Assembly (NCBI RefSeq): GCF_988243305.1
Contig: NZ_OZ547136.1
Strand: one strand, 5' to 3'
DNA length: 64,000 bases
Positions 28,452 through 39,126 of this stretch are shown piece after piece; the first letter of the stretch is position 1, and every line of letters begins with the position of its first letter. A program made the position numbers and the translations under genes. The notes below the pieces were generated by a model. It saw nothing but the letters and a program-made list of their open reading frames with translations, had not been told where the DNA came from and did no database searches.

Positions 28452-28793
28452 AACATAAAAAAATCCCGCAGTGATCGCGGAGCTGCGGGGACAGACAAAT
28501 GAAGATCAATGTTAAGGAGTTGTTTTTGTTACTCGGGCAAAAAAACACTAACGCAGCGAAATTATAAGCGCCACAGTCAGTGTGTGAAAATGTGAAGATA
28601 TTCAGAATTTTTATGCCATTACCGGTTTTAACCAACAGGATTATCGGTGGGCATGAAAGAAAACCCCGGTATCTGCTGATACCGGGGTTTCTCTTTAGCA
28701 TGGCAGAAATGTGTTTCATGCTTTTCGGACGAAGGATATCCGACTTCTGTACGGAATGGCAAGTGGCGGTTAATTTATTCAGGGGAAGGCTGT

Positions 28794-31700
28794 ATGGGAA
28801 AAGGTGGCGGTAAGGCACACACGCCTCGTGAGGCGAAGGATAATCTCAAATCCACGCAGATGATGAGCGTGATTGATGCGATTGGTGAGGGACCGATAGA
28901 TGGCCCGGTGAAAGGCCTGCAGAGTATTCTGGTGAACAAAACCCCGCTGACGGACACGGACGGTAATCCCGTGATACACGGTGTGACCGCGGTCTGGCGT
29001 GCCGGGGAGCAGGAGCAGACACCACCGGAAGGCTTTGAGTCCTCCGGCTCTGAAACTGTACTGGGTGTCGAAGTGACCAGGGCAAAACCGGTAACACGCA
29101 CCATTACGTCAGCGAACATTGACCGCCTGCGGGTGACCTTCGGGGTGCAGTCACTGGTGGAGACCACGTCAAAGGGTGACCGTAATCCGTCCTCTGTCCG
29201 TCTGCTGATTCAGTTACAGCGTAACGGTAACTGGGTGACAGAAAAGGATGTCACCATTAACGGCAAGACCACCTCACAGTTCCTGGCCTCGGTGATTCTG
29301 GATAATCTGCCTCCCCGCCCCTTTAACATCCGGATGGTCAGGGAGACGGCGGACAGCACCACGGACCAGCTGCAGAACAGAACGCTGTGGTCGTCATACA
29401 CCGAAATCATCGATGTGAAACAGTGCTACCCGAACACGGCCATTGTGGGGATGCAGGTGGATGCGGAGCAGTTTGGTGGTCAGCAGATGACGGTGAACTA
29501 CCATATCCGCGGTCGCATCATCCAGGTGCCGTCAAACTATGACCCGGAAAAACGCACGTACAGTGGTATCTGGGACGGCAGTCTGAAACCGGCATACAGC
29601 AACAATCCGGCCTGGTGTCTGTGGGACATGCTGACTCACCCGCGCTACGGCATGGGAAAACGTCTGGGGGCGGCGGATGTGGACAAGTGGGCGCTGTATG
29701 CCATCGGGCAGTACTGCGACCAGATGGTGCCGGATGGCTTCGGGGGCACCGAGCCGCGGATGACCTTCAATGCGTACCTGGCACAACAGCGTAAGGCGTG
29801 GGATGTTCTCAGTGATTTCTGCTCGGCGATGCGCTGTATGCCGGTATGGAACGGCCAGATGCTGACGTTTGTTCAGGACCGCCTGTCGGATGTGGTGTGG
29901 CCGTACACCAACAGCGATGTGGTGGTGGATGATAACGGCGTGGGGTTCCGCTACAGCTTCAGTGCCCTGAAGGACCGGCACGCGGCGGTGGAGGTGAATT
30001 ACACCGACCCGCAGAACGGCTGGCAGACCTCCACGGAACTGGTGGAAGACCCGGAAGCCATACTGCGCTACGGACGCAACCTGCTGAAGATGGACGCGTT
30101 CGGCTGTACCAGCCGCGGTCAGGCCCACCGTGCCGGACTGTGGGTGATAAAGACCGAACTGCTGGAAACGCAGACGGTGGATTTCACGCTCGGGTCTCAG
30201 GGGCTGCGGCACACACCCGGTGACATTATTGAAATCTGTGATAATGACTATGCCGGGACCCTGACCGGCGGACGTGTCCTGTCCATTGATGCTGCCACCC
30301 GCACCCTGACGCTGGACCGTGAGGTTACCCTGCCGGAGACAGGTACATCGGCGGTGAACCTGATTAACGGCAGCGGTAAGCCGGTGAGTGTGGACATCAC
30401 CGCACACCCCGCGCCGGACCGGATACAGGTCAGTACCCTGCCTGATGGTGTGGAGACATACGGGGTGTGGGGACTCTCCCTGCCGTCACTGCGCCGTCGC
30501 CTGTTCCGCTGTGTCTCCATCCGGGAAAACACGGACGGCACCTTTGCCATCACGGCGGTGCAGCACGTACCGGAAAAAGAAGCCATCGTGGATAACGGTG
30601 CCCGCTTTGAGCCGCAGTCAGGTTCCCTGAACAGCGTCATCCCACCGGCAGTGCAGCACCTGACGGTGGAGGTGAGCGCAGCTGACGGCCGGTATCTGGC
30701 GCAGGCGAAATGGGACACGCCGCGGGTGGTGAAGGGTGTGCGCTTCAGTCTGCGCCTGACCAGTGGTAAGGGAACGGATGCCAGACTGGTGACCACCGCC
30801 ATCACCGCAGACACGGAGCACCGTTTCAGCGGCCTGCCGCTCGGGGAATACACCCTGACGGTGCGGGCGATAAACAGCTATGGCCAGCAGGGTGAACCTG
30901 CCACCACCACCTTCCGGATTGCCGCACCGGCAGCACCGTCGCGGATTGAGCTGACGCCGGGCTATTTTCAGATAACCGCAACGCCACATCTTGCCGTTTA
31001 TGACCCGACGGTACAGTTTGAGTTCTGGTTCTCGGAAAAGCGGATTGCGGATATCAGGCAGGTTGAAACCGCAGCCCGCTATCTTGGCTCGGCGCTGTAC
31101 TGGATAGCTGCCAGTATCAATATCAAACCGGGCCATGATTATTATTTTTATATCCGCAGTGTGAATACTGTTGGCAAATCGGCATTCGTGGAGGCTGTCG
31201 GTCGGGCGAGCGATGATGCGGAAGGTTACCTGGATTTTTTCAAAGGAGAAATCGGGAAAACACATCTGGCCCAGGAGCTGTGGACGCAGATTGATAACGG
31301 TCAGCTTGCGCCGGACCTGGCTGAAATCAGGACGTCCATTACGAATGTCAGCAATGAAATCACGCAGACCGTCAATAAAAAACTGGAAAATCAGAGTGCG
31401 GCAATCCAGCAGATACAGAAAGTTCAGGTTGATACAAATAATAACCTGAACAGCATGTGGGCCGTGAAACTGCAGCAGATGCAGGACGGACGCCTTTATA
31501 TTGCGGGTATCGGTGCCGGTATTGAGAATACGCCAGCAGGAATGCAGAGTCAGGTGCTGCTGGCGGCAGACAGGATTGCGATGATTAATCCTGCGAATGG
31601 CAACACAAAGCCGATGTTTGTTGGTCAGGGCGATCAGATATTTATGAATGAAGTGTTCCTGAAATATCTGACGGCTCCCACCATTACCAGCGGCGGTAAT

Positions 31701-32267
31701 CCTCCGGCATTTTCCCTGACACCGGACGGGCGGCTGACGGCGAAAAATGCCGATATCAGCGGTAACGTGAATGCGAACTCCGGGACGCTCAACAACGTCA
31801 CGATTAACGAGAACTGTCGGGTTCTGGGAAAATTGTCCGCGAACCAGATTGAAGGCGATCTCGTTAAAACAGTGGGCAAAGCTTTCCCCCGGGACTCCCG
31901 TGCACCGGAGCGGTGGCCATCAGGGACCATTACCGTCAGGGTTTATGACGATCAGCCGTTTGACCGGCAGATTGTTATTCCGGCGGTGGCATTCAGCGGC
32001 GCTAAACATGAGAAAGAGCATACTGATATTTACTCCTCATGCCGTCTGATAGTGCGGAAAAACGGTGCTGAAATTTATAACCGTACCGCGCTGGATAATA
32101 CGCTGATTTACAGTGGTGTTATTGATATGCCTGCCGGTCACGGTCACATGACACTGGAGTTTTCGGTGTCAGCATGGCTGGTGAATAACTGGTATCCCAC
32201 AGCAAGTATCAGCGATTTGCTGGTTGTGGTGATGAAGAAAGCCACCGCAGGCATCAGTATCAGCTGA
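28794..32267 (+). CDS. Host specificity / central tail fibre protein J
   Basis: 1157 aa; lambda J-like N-terminal and central regions; divergent C-terminus. Confidence 0.9.
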
Positions 32268-32286
32268 ATTTTATAACCCATATACG

Positions 32287-32311
32287 GGCGCCAGAAATGG
32301 CGCCTTTTTTA
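32287..32311 (+). terminator. Rho-independent terminator after J
   Basis: GGCGCCA-GAAA-TGGCGCC followed by TTTTTT. Confidence 0.65.
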
Positions 32312-32334
32312 TTGCAGAAAAGCGAGAGGTAATT

Positions 32335-32934
32335 ATGCGTAAAGTTTGTGCAGCCATTTTGTCCGCAGCCATCTGTCTGTCCGTATCCGGTGCGCCTGCA
32401 TGGGCGTCTGAACATCAGTCCACACTGAGCGCGGGGTATCTTCATGCCCGTACGAACGCTCCCGGCAGCGATAATCTGAACGGGATTAACGTGAAATACC
32501 GTTATGAGTTTACGGACGCGCTGGGGCTGATTACGTCCTTCAGTTATGCCAATGCTGAGGATGAGCAAAAAACGCACTACAGCGATACCCGCTGGCATGA
32601 AGATTCCGTGCGTAACCGCTGGTTCAGCGTGATGGCGGGGCCGTCTGTACGCGTGAATGAATGGTTCAGCGCGTATGCGATGGTGGGTGTGGCTTACAGC
32701 CGTGTGTCGACTTTCTCCGGGGATTATCTCCGCGTAACTGACAACAAGGGGAAAACGCACGACGTGCTGACCGGAAGTGATGACGGTCGCCACAGCAACA
32801 CGTCTCTGGCGTGGGGGGCTGGCGTGCAGTTTAACCCGACCGAATACGTGACCATTGACCTTGCTTATGAAGGTTCCGGTAGTGGCGACTGGCGAACGGA
32901 TGCATTTATTGTTGGTATCGGATACCGTTTCTGA
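32335..32934 (+). CDS. lom: Lom/Ail-family outer membrane beta-barrel protein
   Basis: Signal peptide, alternating beta-strand pattern, C-terminal AFIVGIGYRF; canonical lambda moron position after J. Confidence 0.85.
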   Translation: MRKVCAAILSAAICLSVSGAPAWASEHQSTLSAGYLHARTNAPGSDNLNGINVKYRYEFTDALGLITSFSYANAEDEQKTHYSDTRWHEDSVRNRWFSVMAGPSVRVNEWFSAYAMVGVAYSRVSTFSGDYLRVTDNKGKTHDVLTGSDDGRHSNTSLAWGAGVQFNPTEYVTIDLAYEGSGSGDWRTDAFIVGIGYRF

Positions 32935-33038
32935 CAACAGACGCCGATTTATCTTCTGTAAATATTGTTATGATACGCAGGTTCATCCACCTTATGGGGT
33001 GAACTGCGTTTGAGGAAACGTAAAGTTACACTGTCCTG

Positions 33039-33071
33039 AAGCCCGTGGCGTCACTGCTGCGGGCTTTTTTT
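33039..33071 (+). terminator. Rho-independent terminator after lom
   Basis: AAGCCCG...CGGGCTT stem followed by TTTTTTT. Confidence 0.6.
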
Positions 33072-33085
33072 ATTGGTGGAAAAGT

Positions 33086-36000
33086 ATGACAGTAAAAATT
33101 TCTGGCGTGCTTAAAGATGGCACAGGAAAACCAGTACAGAACTGCACCATTGTGCTGAAGGCCAGACGAACCAGCAGCACGGTGGTGGTGAACACAGTTG
33201 CCTCAGAAAACCCGGATGAAGCCGGGCGTTATACAATGGACGTCGAGTATGGTCAGTACAGCGTCAGTCTGTTGGTGGAGGGATTCCCGCCGTCACACGC
33301 CGGGACCATCACCGTGTATGAAGACTCACAACCGGGTACGCTGAATGATTTTCTCGGTGCCATGACGGAGGATGATGCCCGTCCGGAGGCACTGCGCCGT
33401 TTTGAAGTGATGGTGGAAGAGGTGGCGCGTAACGCGTCCGCAGTGGCACAGAACACGGCAGCCGCGAAGAAGTCAGCCGGCGATGCCAGCACATCAGCCC
33501 GTGAGGCGGCAACCCATGCGACTGATGCTGCAGGCTCAGCACGTGCAGCCAGCACGTCAGCCGGACAGGCCGCGTCGTCGGCTCAGTCAGCGTCTTCCAG
33601 CGCAGGAACGGCATCAATAAAGGCCACTGAAGCCTCAAAAAGTGCTGCTGCTGCAGAGTCATCAAAAAGCGCGGCAGCTACCAGCGCCAGTGCCGCGAAA
33701 ACGTCAGAAACGAATGCCGCAGCATCACAAAAATCGGCAGCCACTTCTGCATCCACAGCGACCACGAAGGCGTCAGAAGCTGCCACCTCGGCACGGGGTG
33801 CGGCGGCCTCAAAAGAGGCAGCGAAATCTTCAGAAACGAATGCATCCTCGAGCGCCAGCAGCGCAGCTTCCTCGGCAACGGCGACAGCAAATTCTGCGAA
33901 GGCGGCAAAAACGTCCGAGACGAACGCTAAGTCTTCTGAGACGGCAGCGGAACAGAGCGCCTCAGCTGCGGCAGGTTCAAAAACAGCGGCTGCATTATCT
34001 GCCAGTGCCGCGTCAACAAGTGCCGGGCAGGCCTCAGCCAGTGCCACCGCTGCCGGAAAGTCGGCAGAAAGTGCCGCCTCGTCTGCTTCAACAGCCACAA
34101 CGAAGGCTGGCGAAGCCACTGAACAGGCCAGTGCAGCAGCGAGGTCTGCTTCCGCAGCGAAGACATCCGAGACGAACGCGAAAGCGTCGGAAACCAGCGC
34201 AGAATCCTCAAAAACGGCTGCCGCATCGTCCGCTAGTTCGGCGGCGTCATCGGCATCATCGGCGTCAGCTTCAAAAGATGAGGCGACCAGACAGGCGTCA
34301 GCAGCGAAGGGCAGCGCCACGACAGCATCCACGAAGGCGACAGAGGCAACTGGCAGTGCGACGGCGGCAGCACAGAGCAAAAGTACGGCGGAATCCGCGG
34401 CAACGCGCGCCGAGACAGCGGCAAAACGGGCAGAGGATATTGCATCCGCCGTGGCGCTTGAGGATGCAAGTACGACGAAAAAGGGGATAGTACAGCTCAG
34501 CAGTGCAACCAACAGCACATCTGAAACGCTTGCCGCGACACCGAAGGCAGTTAAAGCAGCGAATGACAATGCGAATGGCAGGGTACCATCTAACCGAAAA
34601 GTTAACGGGAAAGCACTGACTGCGGATATAACATTAACACCGAAAGATATTGGCACTTTAAATTCAGTAACGATCTCTTTCTCTGGCGGGGCAGGGTGGT
34701 TCAAACTGGCAACGGTTACCATGCCACAAGCGAGTTCCATCGTTTACATCGCATTGATTGGTGGCGCTGGTTACAACGTCGGCTCCCCACAGCAGGCAGG
34801 CATTTCAGAACTGGTTCTACGAGCAGGCAATGGAAAGCCCAAAGGGATTACCGGAGCTTTGTGGAAGCGTACAGCCGTCGGATTAACGAATTTCGCCTGG
34901 ATCAACACATCCGGCGATACATATGATATTTACGTTGAGATTGGCAATTATGCGACGAGTGTAAATATCCATTGGGATTGTACTACAAATGCGTCAGTTT
35001 CTATTTATACCTCGCCAACATATTCAGCGAGTAAGCCTTCCAGCGTTACCGGTGGTGTTGTTTATACGATGTATAGCTCACATCAGAAACCTACACCATC
35101 AGATATTGGAGCGCTGCCAACGACTGGAGGGACTATTTCAGGTCCGTTGTCTGTTACTGATGGGATCACCGGGGCACTGAAGGGGAACGCCGATACCGCG
35201 ACGAAACTTGCGGCAGTCCCAAAAATTAACGGTGTTAAGTTTGATGGCTCGGCGGATATTAACCTCACGCCGGAAAATATTGGTGCATTTGCCCGACGTT
35301 CGACGGGGGCTTATGCGGATTCGGATGGAGCCGTTCCCTGGAATGCCGAATCAGGCGCTTACAATGTCACCCGCTCTGGCGACAGCTATATTCTGGTTAA
35401 CTTCTATACCGGAGTCGGAAGTTGCCGGACCCTGCAGATGAAGGCGCATTACAGAAATCGTGGTCTGTTCTACCGTTCTTCAAGAGACGGTTATGGTTTT
35501 GAGGAAGACTGGGCAGAAGTTTATACCTCGAAAAATCTTCCACCAGAAAGCTACCCAGTCGGCGCACCAATCCCGTGGCCATCAGATACCGTTCCGTCTG
35601 GTTATGCCCTGATGCAGGGGCAGACTTTTGACAAATCTGCTTACCCGAAACTTGCAGCTGCTTATCCGTCAGGCGTGATCCCTGATATGCGTGGCTGGAC
35701 GATTAAGGGCAAACCTGCCAGTGGTCGAGCCGTATTATCTCAGGAACAGGACGGCATTAAATCGCACACCCACAGCGCCAGTGCATCCAGTACGGATTTG
35801 GGGACGAAAACCACGTCGTCGTTTGATTATGGTACTAAGTCTTCAAATGCCACTGGTGACCATAACCACAGCCGAGGCACTATGGAAATTACCGGTACTC
35901 TCGGTTACTTCAGAAGTGATAGCGGTAATTTCTATACAGCAAGTGGAGCATTTACACTGGGTGGCTCTGCGCCAGCCCATGGATTTACGGGCTCTCAATT

Positions 36001-36214
36001 TACTTATGGTGTTCCTGTAAACTTTAACGCTTCCAGAACCTGGTCTGGTGCCACAAGCACTACAGGTAACCATGCGCACTCTGTTCCAATTGGTGCTCAT
36101 GCGCACTCCGTTGCGATTGGTTCACATGGACACACCATCACCGTTAACGCTGCTGGTAACGCGGAAAACACCGTCAAAAACATCGCATTTAACTATATTG
36201 TGAGGCTTGCATAA
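33086..36214 (+). CDS. stf: Side tail fibre protein (Stf-like)
   Basis: 1042 aa; Ala/Ser-rich repeat region with repeated (K)T/SSETNA motif; C-terminal HxH repeats ([23 protein letters not shown]). Confidence 0.85.
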
Positions 36215-36798
36215 TGGCATTCAGAATGAGTGAACAAGCACGGACCATAAAAATTTATAATCTGCTGGCCGGAACTAATGAATTTATTGGTGAAGGTGAC
36301 GCATATATTCCGCCTCATACAGGTCTGCCAGCAAACAGTACCGATATTGCACCACCAGATATTCCTGCTGGCTTTGTGGCTGTTTTCAACAGTGATGAGT
36401 CATCGTGGCATCTCTTTGAAGACCATCGGGGTAAAACGGTTTATGACGTAGCGTCAGGGGACGAGTTATTTATTTCTGAACTCGGTCCGTTACCGGAAAA
36501 TGTTACCTGGTTATCGCCGGAAGGGGAGTTTCAGAAGTGGAACGGCACAGCCTGGGTGAAGGATACGGAAGCAGAAAAACTGTTCCGGATCCGGGAGGCG
36601 GAAGAAACAAAAAACAACCTGATGCAGGTAGCCAGTGAGCATATTGCGCCGCTTCAGGATGCTGCAGATCTGGAAATTGCAACGGAGGAAGAAACCTCAT
36701 TGCTGGAAGCCTGGAAAAAGTATCGGGTATTGCTGAACCGTGTTGATACATCAACAGCACCTGATATTGAGTGGCCTGCAAATCCTGTCAGGGAGTAA
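36214..36798 (+). CDS. tfa: Tail fibre assembly protein (Tfa)
   Basis: 194 aa; TAATG overlap with stf; Tfa-like sequence. Confidence 0.8.
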
Positions 36799-36852
36799 TC
36801 ATTGGTATTATGCCGCAGCACGTCTTAAGCAAGAACGTGCTGCGGTTGGATG

Positions 36853-37521
36853 CTATTTTTTCCCTGAAGCGGAAAACATTACTACAGTACCTTGAACCTT
36901 GGTTTTAACATTCTCGAAATGCTCTGAGAGTATATGTGTTAAGCCTTCTTCGGAATCTTTTGTGTTTGAAAAGATGCCTTTCTGATTGTAAATGCGCATC
37001 AGTTTTTGACCGAAGCTATTGTGCACAACTCCATCGCCAAGAATTGTGGCTCCGTATAGAGTTCCATCGTCAGTTAAGGCCTGCGCCGCATTGCGTATTA
37101 CACAGCTTTTTGTAGATATATTTCCAGGCAGGCAGTGAAGAAGGTAAAACATGGAAATGGAATCAAATTGACCATGTAACGCCGCGGGATAAGGTTCAAA
37201 AACATCATGGCTAATTTTATGTTTAATTTTTGATTCCCCAGCCCTTGTAGATGCCGCGTTCAGGCTAGCTTCGTTCAAATCCATTAAAGATATCAGACTA
37301 CTCTCAGGTACGTGAGTAAGGTAAAACCCAGTTCCAACACCAATATCCAGATGGTTGTTACCTACATGTTCCAGAAAGTGTGGAAGAAGGTGTTCCTTTG
37401 TAGGACATCCCCATGCAAGCCGATTTGATACTCCCAAAACCCACCAGTCATAAAGCTTTAGGGTAAGTGGTGTGTAAATTTTAGCCCCATCATCTGTGTT
37501 TTTTTTCATTGATTTCACCAT
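36853..37521 (-). CDS. Class I SAM-dependent methyltransferase (moron)
   Basis: Motif I LDIGVGTGFY, acidic post-I residue, motif FDSISMFYLLHCLP; AT-rich, opposite strand to the tail genes. Confidence 0.7.
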   Translation of the reverse strand: MVKSMKKNTDDGAKIYTPLTLKLYDWWVLGVSNRLAWGCPTKEHLLPHFLEHVGNNHLDIGVGTGFYLTHVPESSLISLMDLNEASLNAASTRAGESKIKHKISHDVFEPYPAALHGQFDSISMFYLLHCLPGNISTKSCVIRNAAQALTDDGTLYGATILGDGVVHNSFGQKLMRIYNQKGIFSNTKDSEEGLTHILSEHFENVKTKVQGTVVMFSASGKK

Positions 37522-37577: not shown

Positions 37578-37847
37578 ATGCTGCCGCAGCATAGCGATAT
37601 TGAAATAGCCTGGTATGCTTCGATACAGCAGGAGCCGAATGGCTGGAAGACCGTCACCACACAGTTCTACATCCAGGAATTCAGTGAGTATATTGCGCCA
37701 CTGCAGGATGCTGTAGATCTGGAAATCGCAACGGAGGAAGAAAGATCGTTGCTGGAGGCATGGAATAAATATCGGGTATTGTTGAATCGTGTTGATACAT
37801 CAACTGCACCTGATATTGAGTGGCCTGCAAATCCTGTCAGGGAGTAA
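37578..37847 (+). pseudogene. Tfa C-terminal fragment (duplicated 3' end of tfa)
   Basis: Last about 50 codons and 3' UTR (37692-37896) are about 90% identical to tfa 36643-36847; N-terminus unrelated. Confidence 0.6.
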
Positions 37848-38443
37848 TCATTGGGATTATGCCGCAGACACGTCGTATGCAGGAACGTGCTGCGGTTAGT
37901 TTGTGAGCTTTCGATAGTGGTTGTTATTTTTGCCCTTATTTGTTCCGGAGGCCATGGTTCAATGGTCCGTCTGCCCCCTGTGGTGATGTCAGCAAAATCA
38001 GCCACTGCGCGAACCACAATAGCCCGGGAAGATGCTGAAGATCACCAGGTAAAGCTGTCAGCGCAGAAACTGGAAGAACTGCTCGCATCAATGGTTAAGG
38101 ATGAGGTTGATCGCAATGATGGGATTTATTGACGTCAGCGAGAGCAGAAGGAAGAACTGAATAACCTGAATGATTTACGCTCAATCAGAGCGATGATGAT
38201 TGGCAGTAATTAGCGGTCAATTTCGGTTTTTTTGGCTGTGCGCTCCCCGCCCAGCATTGCGCGTCAATTAGCCCCAAAAAAACGAAAAAGTTACAATCAA
38301 GTAAAAAATTCCTTCTGCAAAACTAAAAAAGATTTCAATAAAATCAGACAGTTAAAAACATAAAAAAAAGTACAAAAAAACATCTCAAAGTCTTGTTTTT
38401 TGCTTCAAATACAATTGGTTATTGTGTTTTTTGAAACCTACCA

Positions 38444-38560
38444 GTGTGGTACATGGATATCGATACCACCGCCAATTATAAGCTGGGCGGTGCACAGCAA
38501 CACGATAGCGTACGCCTCGATCCGTGGGTGTTTATGTTCTCAGCAGGATATCGTTTTTAA
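38444..38560 (+). other. ompW: 3'-terminal fragment of ompW at the prophage right junction (attR region)
   Basis: In-frame translation VWYMDIDTTANYKLGGAQQHDSVRLDPWVFMFSAGYRF* matches the OmpW C-terminus as I recall it; an in-frame stop lies at 38432, so the upstream part of the gene is absent here. Confidence 0.7.
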
Positions 38561-38619: not shown

Positions 38620-39126
38620 TTATTTCTTCGCTTCTACGCCATCAGTTTCAGAGCGAATTAAAAATTTCTCAGTTGTTTGCGGAATATGCTGAATCAGCCA
38701 GTCGGCCATTTCTTTTTCCTCATTTAAAATCGCTTCGATGGTTGGAATTGAAGCTGTATCACCGGCATTTTTTGCTGCTGCTAATAGTGAGGTGTAACAG
38801 GCGATTTCAAATTGCTCGAAGACATATCCGCTAATAGAGCCTTTGACTATTTCATCAGAAGGGAATATACCACCGATTGACTGCCCAAGCGCAGCCATTT
38901 TACTCATGGAATCTTTAATGACTGAACGTGAAATGTCATTACGATCAAGAATAGTTTCCAGTTGAACAATCTGGTTTTTGGTTTCACTAAGATGTTGTTC
39001 AATACGAGCGCGTAGTTCAGGATAATTATCTATACGACTAGCCATGGATTCAAGCATAGATTCGGCTTGCTTTTCCATTGCGTGGGCGTCACGTAACCAG
39101 TCATGATAATGTTCAATACGATTCAT
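38620..39126 (-). CDS. yciE: DUF892 ferritin-like stress protein YciE
   Basis: 168 aa; conserved position in the yciE-yciF-yciG-trpA order; which paralogue is which is inferred from length and order. Confidence 0.8.
   Translation of the reverse strand: MNRIEHYHDWLRDAHAMEKQAESMLESMASRIDNYPELRARIEQHLSETKNQIVQLETILDRNDISRSVIKDSMSKMAALGQSIGGIFPSDEIVKGSISGYVFEQFEIACYTSLLAAAKNAGDTASIPTIEAILNEEKEMADWLIQHIPQTTEKFLIRSETDGVEAKK

Follow-up and report, generated by a model that had tools for sequence, protein, structure and literature searches.

The gene at positions 32335–32934 of the window (the whole 64,000-nucleotide stretch of contig NZ_OZ547136.1 analysed here, to which all coordinates refer) is very probably an intact and ordinary lom cassette of the class encoding 199-amino acid proteins, carried as a late-operon gene by a PPompW-type prophage and with a product that modifies the cell surface. 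Lambdoid prophages are well known for carrying it as an accessory gene, its identical sequence is already in RefSeq, and it has little discovery value. The first-pass annotation had described it as a moron that is likely expressed in the lysogen and may contribute to adhesion or serum resistance. The first label is unbacked by the sequence, in which we find a terminator but no promoter within a Q-dependent late operon, and the second is taken over from relatives whose surface loops differ. Recent findings for lambda Lom raise the possibility that the family works for the phage, by masking receptors, and this possible role makes the common 199-amino acid class a reasonable and cheap target for adsorption assays; the reading of Lom as a late receptor mask would, if true, be of only moderate importance, since it extends a result already emerging for lambda Lom.

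The lom gene and its prophage

The window is a segment of an Escherichia coli chromosome containing a lambdoid prophage, which has head genes like those of HK97 and is inserted next to yciE and trp. A fragment of ompW at the prophage junction identifies it as of the PPompW type, and in a genome that is 99.3% identical an N-terminally truncated OmpW pseudogene is annotated just before yciE; the location of this pseudogene beside yciE indicates that the prophage is integrated in ompW. The equivalent OmpW remnant in the window lies at approximately 38435–38560 (coordinates inferred from the offset), beside yciE (38620–39126, minus strand).

The lom open reading frame is intact, starts with ATG on the plus strand, and encodes 199 amino acids, exactly where the first-pass annotation had placed it. 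It consists of the signal peptide codons (32335–32406), a mature 175-residue barrel (32407–32931) and a stop codon (32932–32934), and is preceded by a Shine-Dalgarno sequence, GAGAGG, at 32324–32329, 5 nt before the ATG. A 225-residue open reading frame on the opposite strand (32260–32937) was dismissed as a shadow of the lom frame. Immediately upstream is J (28794–32267, plus strand), coding for the 1157-residue tail-tip attachment (host specificity) protein and recognized by its open reading frame and its Pfam GpJ domains, which include a C-terminal receptor-binding domain at residues 1027–1157; it matches PDB chain 8iyk_J with an E-value of 0. Downstream lies stf (33086–36214, plus strand), coding for a 1042-residue side tail fibre with Pfam phage_tail_N (residues 1–134) and Collar domains, with PDB matches to 9e7m_Ta at the N-terminus and to the T4 gp37 tip 2xgf at the C-terminus. 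The final gene of the late operon is tfa (36214–36798, plus strand), which encodes a 194-residue tail fibre assembly protein with a Pfam Caudo_TAP match. Every gene from the antiterminator to tfa (Q ... J-lom-stf-tfa) shares the plus strand, and lom has the same-strand position between J and stf that characterizes a lambda-type lom locus; the J-lom-stf order proposed in the first-pass annotation is borne out by the domain matches of both neighbours, and the gene is the positional orthologue of lambda lom.

Three RefSeq E. coli genomes contain the 901 nucleotides around lom at 100% identity, and the identical DNA is annotated in RefSeq as coding for an 'Ail/Lom family outer membrane beta-barrel protein' (WP_032234602.1). 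When used as a query, the same 901 nucleotides match 4787 of 5426 complete E. coli genomes, at a median of two places per genome and a maximum of 14, and at least 80% of the query is covered in 2397 complete genomes; at the protein level, clusters with thousands of members share 82–93% identity. It is an ordinary, very common and already known gene, and the 199-amino acid class to which it belongs dominates the lambdoid prophages of E. coli, occurring in Stx phages, PPompW prophages, mEp460, Ayreon and cdtI.

Lom is a member of the Ail/Lom family

The Pfam model PF06316 (Ail_Lom; gathering score 23 bits) matches Lom end to end (positions 1–199 of 199, 416 bits, E = 2.9e-125), and PHROG 108, 'Lom outer membrane protein', matches with an E-value of 3e-108, so that the family membership claimed in the first-pass annotation stands. 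By a rule-based reading the protein starts with a Sec signal peptide, MRKVCAAILSAAICLSVSGAPAWA followed by SEHQ (...APAWA/SEHQ), with a signal peptidase I site; there are two basic residues, a hydrophobic core (mean Kyte-Doolittle value 2.0), alanines at positions -3 and -1, and the cleavage motif AWA/S, and a search of the signal peptide for a lipobox found none. At the other end the sequence ...FIVGIGYRF constitutes an aromatic outer membrane protein beta-signal, with F199 invariant among 18 homologues. An AlphaFold2 model built from an 18-sequence alignment (mean pLDDT 77.4) predicts eight long antiparallel strands, the sixth with a short break, and its best matches in the PDB are Ail of Yersinia (3qrc) and OmpX of E. 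coli (1qj9), with E-values of about 1e-13 and a target-normalised TM-score of 0.83. Absence of a signal peptide and disruption of the barrel topology had both been named beforehand as grounds for abandoning the assignment; the signal peptide is present and the predicted eight-stranded barrel is intact. The closest solved chain by sequence is lambda Lom (PDB 9wso_C, E = 4e-47), and the alignments to lambda Lom and Ail that had been proposed as a check give identities of 41% and approximately 32%, respectively. All of the defining features for which we tested are found, and judged by its sequence and its model Lom is a full-length member of the Ail/Lom family.

It is safe to take from this membership that Lom is exported, cleaved, and inserted with the help of BAM as an eight-stranded barrel. 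As established lambda biology suggests, the precursor would be exported by Sec and cleaved after Ala24, and BAM would insert the product into the outer membrane of the cell that is carrying or replicating the phage.

Family membership is also the starting point for the proposal of serum resistance, in which the barrel would act in the manner of Ail, Rck and PagC, binding complement regulators and shielding the lysogen from complement. Lom does share its Pfam family and its fold with Ail, and its best NCBIfam match is the 'resistance to complement killing' (Rck) model, but the match falls far below the cut-off of that equivalog (NF011777; 110.7 bits against 258). The OmpX equivalog (NF006917) is likewise missed, at 100.8 bits against a cut-off of 176. 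The identity of about 32% extends to OmpX as well as Ail and the loops are unrelated; furthermore, we found no report of a Lom-mediated effect, and in lambda the trait is attributed to Bor (PMC3594210). We thus find no support for this part of the first-pass annotation, and consider a role in serum resistance to be very unlikely.

Structure of the lom cassette

Terminator scanning and folding locate a terminator immediately after J (32286–32313, plus strand), composed of an 8-bp hairpin, GGGCGCCA-GAAA-UGGCGCCU, followed by TTTTTATT; the hairpin (32286–32305) with its T-run has a folding energy of -15.7 kcal/mol and a z-score of -2.8. Among 11 variants of this hairpin base pairing is kept in 98.9% of cells, compensatory double changes occur at two of its eight pairs (G-C to A-U and C-G to U-A), and the loop is inverted in one variant, a pattern which indicates that the hairpin is under selection. 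The second terminator, that of the lom cassette, is at 33038–33074 on the plus strand, 11 nt before the start of stf, and has a GC-rich hairpin of 12–13 bp followed by TTTTTTTATT; it is the more stable of the two, with a value of -23.2 kcal/mol and a z-score of -4.6 for the hairpin (33038–33067) plus T-run. The two plus-strand terminators said to bracket lom are therefore both present, each a hairpin with a T-run, and both mEp460 and Ayreon have an annotated terminator at the position that corresponds to the second of them. An Rfam search of 31500–33600 gave no match at E <= 1, that is, no known small RNA or cis-element in the lom flanks.

Comparison with phage 21, which is without lom, shows how these elements are arranged. 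In phage 21 the identical hairpin, GGGCGCCAGAAATGGCGCC, comes after the J stop codon, with TTTTTTATT behind it, and stf follows at once with its ribosome binding site and start (...TGTGGAGTGAATATG). The window is identical to phage 21 through TTTTTTATT, and then diverges to GCAGAAAAGCGAGAGGTAATT-ATG (lom), continuing through the lom hairpin to TTTTTTTATT-GGTGGAAAAGTATG (stf). In three phages that have lom, namely lambda, mEp460 and Ayreon, the T-run of the lom terminator precedes the stf ribosome binding site, GTGGGGTGAATATG, in the way that the J terminator precedes it in phage 21. Because the J terminator and stf are contiguous in phage 21, we conclude that lom is an inserted cassette, made up of a ribosome binding site, an open reading frame, a 3' untranslated region and its own terminator, and placed just behind the T-run of the J terminator. 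The terminator at 32286–32313 belongs to J and lies outside the cassette.

The 5' edge of the inserted cassette is a 21-nt leader, GCAGAAAAGCGAGAGGTAATT (32314–32334, plus strand), which contains the Shine-Dalgarno sequence and is invariant in 70 related viral-contig loci, in mEp460 and in Ayreon; its conservation seems stronger than the Shine-Dalgarno sequence alone would need. We also note that the T-run and leader taken together, TTTTTTATTGCAGAAAAGCGAGAGGTAATT (32306–32334), are invariant in all 70 of these loci and in both phages, and that the adjacent signal peptide codons and the 3' end of J vary. At the other end of the gene, folding of 32936–33085 reveals a 13-bp hairpin in the lom 3' untranslated region (32975–33009, plus strand) that is followed only by TTTG. 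Close relatives have one or other of two unrelated spacers between lom and stf, and the window has the 151-nt one (32935–33085), which contains the 32975–33009 hairpin; this type is present in about a third of the 70 related loci, and the rest carry the unrelated, shorter spacer. A mosaic junction is seen near the 3' end of lom, where many phage matches stop at positions 695–725 of the query (32894–32924 of the window).

The end of the prophage is rearranged, with a duplicated tfa 3' end and gene fragments, and one could suppose that lom is likewise a decaying passenger without current function. However, the full-length open reading frame, the complete coverage of the HMM, the intact signal peptide, the beta-signal and the Shine-Dalgarno sequence all argue against decay, as do the invariant leader and the finding that the frame is intact in 76 of 80 related loci, and we regard the idea as barely credible.

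Expression of lom

Under the Juhala/Hendrix definition of a moron, as summarised in PMC3594210, lom is extra DNA between two genes that are adjacent in a related phage (phage 21), and it has its own terminator (the hairpin at 33038–33067 with its T-run). What it lacks is a promoter of its own within the inserted element, there being only 21 nt from the T-run of the J terminator to the lom ATG, and a deviant base composition, its GC content of 0.548 being close to those of J (0.566) and stf (0.540); the corresponding GC3 values are 0.595 for lom, 0.668 for J and 0.486 for stf. A standard scan of 31800–32335 found no sigma-70-like site on the plus strand, and a relaxed hexamer scan of 31900–32400 gave only weak matches of 7–8 out of 12, none of them credibly placed. 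Scanning upstream of lambda lom similarly found no promoter-like site on the plus strand, and the -10-like TATTAT beside the lambda terminator is TATTGC in the window. Consensus scans of this kind can miss weak or non-sigma-70 promoters. A promoter-like site on the minus strand (32937–32908) was dismissed, as two sites were found where 1.4 are expected by chance. The designation as a moron thus stands in regard to the extra DNA and the terminator, but not in regard to the promoter or the base composition, and by its sequence lom is a distal late-operon gene rather than a self-contained moron.

By analogy with the established biology of the lambda late operon, Q-modified RNA polymerase would read through the J terminator, and most Lom would be made late in lytic growth together with the products of the tail-fibre genes stf and tfa; expression in the lysogen would need an unmapped weak promoter or leakage through the terminator. 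Ribosome profiling by Liu et al. in 2013 is said to be the source for a late rise in lambda lom expression. Passages in PMC12366544 and PMC9836094 cite this rise as a strong one, late in infection.

Reports on lysogens bear on the rival view that lom is an autonomous moron or lysogenic-conversion gene, expressed from its own promoter in the repressed prophage and benefiting the bacterium by promoting adhesion to epithelia. Lambda lom has been listed among the few genes expressed in the lysogen (PMC7067206) and its product described as that of a moron improving the interaction with epithelial cells (PMC3594210), and phi24B lom is expressed at similar levels in lysogens and induced cells (PMC3342100, PMC4651098); these reports for lambda and phi24B suggest that a promoter missed by consensus scans may exist, and the status of lom as extra DNA relative to phage 21, with a terminator of its own, is also in keeping with such a view. 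Against this, there is no promoter-like site, the upstream terminator is separated from the ATG by 21 nt, the GC content is not deviant, and one array study did not detect lambda lom in lysogens and noted that little is known about its promoter (PMC2147009). The adhesive benefit comes from a single report for lambda in K-12, on a protein with different surface loops; a passage in PMC3594210 cites it as adhesion of lambda lom+ K-12 to buccal cells. The corresponding claim for the present protein would be carried over from lambda Lom, with which it has 41% identity overall and 14–21% in loops L1–L3. Expression of lom in a repressed lysogen is possible, although nothing in the sequence supports it; the autonomous gene as a whole is conceivable but doubtful, and we would put adhesion to host epithelium, as a second or alternative effect of Lom, no higher than a fairly doubtful possibility.

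A role for Lom as an accessory to lysis, working at the outer membrane in concert with the holin/lysis cassette during lytic growth, appears highly improbable, as its basis is only a correlation, phage 21 is without lom, and lom is dispensable in lambda, where it lies in or beside the non-essential b region. The correlation in question is that lom, which is strongly expressed in the lytic cycle, is often transferred together with a holin gene between lambdoid phages (PMC9836094).

Receptor masking as a possible function

The barrel would modify the cell surface, and what this modification achieves is the least certain step of the proposed sequence of events. For lambda Lom there are functional data: when expressed it provides strong defence against lambda-vir and none against T7, the other phage shown for lambda Lom, and the 2025 functional screen in which this was observed proposed either superinfection exclusion or the avoidance of non-productive late adsorption (PMC12366544). 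A search with the defence-protein HMMs of PADLOC-DB 2.0, a library that predates the 2025 report on Lom and OMPTell, found no family matching the present Lom at E <= 0.01.

The PDB sequence file shows that entry 9wso holds chains of lambda Lom together with chains of the maltoporin LamB, which is the lambda receptor. PDB searches with J and Stf did not list 9wso and the search with LamB did, and a literature search for '9WSO' found no paper. We note in addition that in the 2026 PDB sequence set the LamB chains of 9wso are identical to those of the J-LamB complex 8xcj. Contact between Lom and LamB is inferred here from their co-deposition, not observed. For lambda Lom, the data as a whole speak more for receptor masking in the service of the phage than for the other proposed roles.

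Loop L4, EGSGSGDWRTD, is invariant from lambda Lom to the present Lom, which suggests a conserved partner at the surface. Masking of a phage receptor would be the most likely function of the present protein too, a choice that we make tentatively, and it would keep the phage's own kin from adsorbing to cells that are already infected or lysogenic, in line with the recent data for lambda Lom. A fuller version can be framed for the 199-amino acid class as a whole, as a late-expressed, phage-serving receptor mask and not primarily a virulence factor of lysogenic conversion; the protein would dock on a porin by way of L4 or the barrel wall, with variable loops L1 and L2 tuning which receptor is hidden, and would so prevent the wasteful adsorption of progeny or superinfection, much as lambda Lom seems to act with respect to LamB. 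In this full form we think the proposal rather unlikely to be correct.

A comparison of Lom with the J tips bears on whether any such mask is matched to the receptor of its own phage. The present J tip (the C-terminal 293 residues, 31386–32264) scores 394 bits to PDB 9wca/9wcb, 'A8 gpJ 713', against 324 bits to lambda J, and diverges from both A8 gpJ and lambda J in approximately its last 90 residues; because the tip is unlike that of lambda, the receptor of this prophage is not predictable from that of lambda. In mEp460 and Ayreon, Lom proteins that are 88–89% identical are found behind J tips with only 45% identity. That nearly the same Lom goes with such different tips speaks against a mask specific to the receptor of the phage's own J, and would fit either a common target or a role unrelated to receptors. 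Among 70 close relatives the identities of Lom and of the J tip are shuffled with respect to each other, and lambda-type lom is found only in near-clonal relatives of lambda, which are uninformative for co-variation of Lom and J tip. Matched pairs of Lom and J tip received no support from co-variation, in a comparison for which linkage and a shallow sample are both confounding factors. How far the functional data, all of which concern lambda Lom, apply here is uncertain, as the 41% identity and the different J tip weigh against direct transfer.

Other features of the prophage

The spacer between the tail assembly gene I and J (28452–28793) is 342 nt long, compared with approximately 60 nt in lambda, and is 99.7% conserved and unannotated in PPompW prophages. 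On its minus strand there is a near-consensus sigma-70 promoter, TTCACA-16-TATAAT, matching at 11 of 12 positions (28588 to 28561), with an intrinsic terminator (28481–28465 plus T-run) approximately 80 nt downstream; together these would yield an RNA of about 90–100 nt antisense to the late operon. The plus strand of the spacer has a hairpin with a T-rich tail at approximately 28662–28698. The spacer has no Rfam match at gathering score and a folding z-score of only -1.1.

Downstream of stf there is a 197-nt direct repeat with 90% identity between its copies (36622–36818 and 37671–37867), which correspond to the 3' end of tfa and to a truncated second tfa copy; the latter is an open reading frame at 37578–37847 matching positions 75–130 of Caudo_TAP. 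The repeat brackets a gene for a class I SAM-dependent methyltransferase (36853–37521, minus strand), which looks like cargo inserted by recombination at the tfa 3' end. The prophage also carries two tRNA genes, identified by ARAGORN as tRNA-Met(CAT) at 5100–5172 and tRNA-Arg(TCT) at 5276–5352; they are in the late regulatory region, downstream of the gene for a phage DNA methyltransferase. The CAT tRNA is called tRNA-Ile by RefSeq in a related genome, reflecting the usual ambiguity over lysidine-modified Ile2 in Met/Ile calls.

Comparison with known systems

Lambda Lom (206 amino acids; PDB 9wso chain C) shares with the present Lom its family, the J-terminator-lom-terminator-stf synteny, and the plan of a signal peptide and barrel, and loop L4 and the C-terminal strands are identical in the two proteins. 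Most of the membrane strands are well conserved, and the differences that reduce the overall identity to 41% include an L1 loop that is 8 residues shorter in the present Lom; by loop the identities are 14% for L1, 21% for L2, 19% for L3 and 100% for L4. With this distribution of differences the properties of lambda Lom, namely adhesion, exclusion of lambda-vir and co-deposition with LamB, cannot be transferred safely to the present protein.

Ail of Yersinia, OmpX of E. coli, and Rck and PagC of Salmonella have the Pfam Ail_Lom/OMP_b-brl assignment and the eight-stranded barrel in common with Lom. Ail and OmpX differ from it in their loops, with Lom having longer L2 and L3 hairpins, and the genes of all four are chromosomal or plasmid-borne, whereas lom is phage-borne and lies inside a tail-gene operon.

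A functional analogy may exist with T5 Llp, with Cor of phi80, N15 and the mEp phages, and with OMPTell-1 and OMPTell-2, as envelope proteins that block adsorption or receptor use. Llp and Cor are lipoproteins; they are phage-encoded, as is Lom, and neither has a sequence relation to it. Cor is covered as a phage exclusion protein in PMC3594210, and the OMPTell proteins are eight-stranded, OmpX/OmpA-like barrels that block adsorption, lambda Lom having acted likewise against lambda-vir (PMC12366544).

The closest correspondence is with the other members of the 199-amino acid class (WP_032234602.1; PPompW prophages, VT1-Sakai, PhiR40_1, mEp460, Ayreon and cdtI), in which the protein is identical or 88–99% identical. 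They have the same J-terminator-lom-terminator-stf layout and the same invariant 21-nt leader, and the sole difference is in which of the lom-stf spacers follows.
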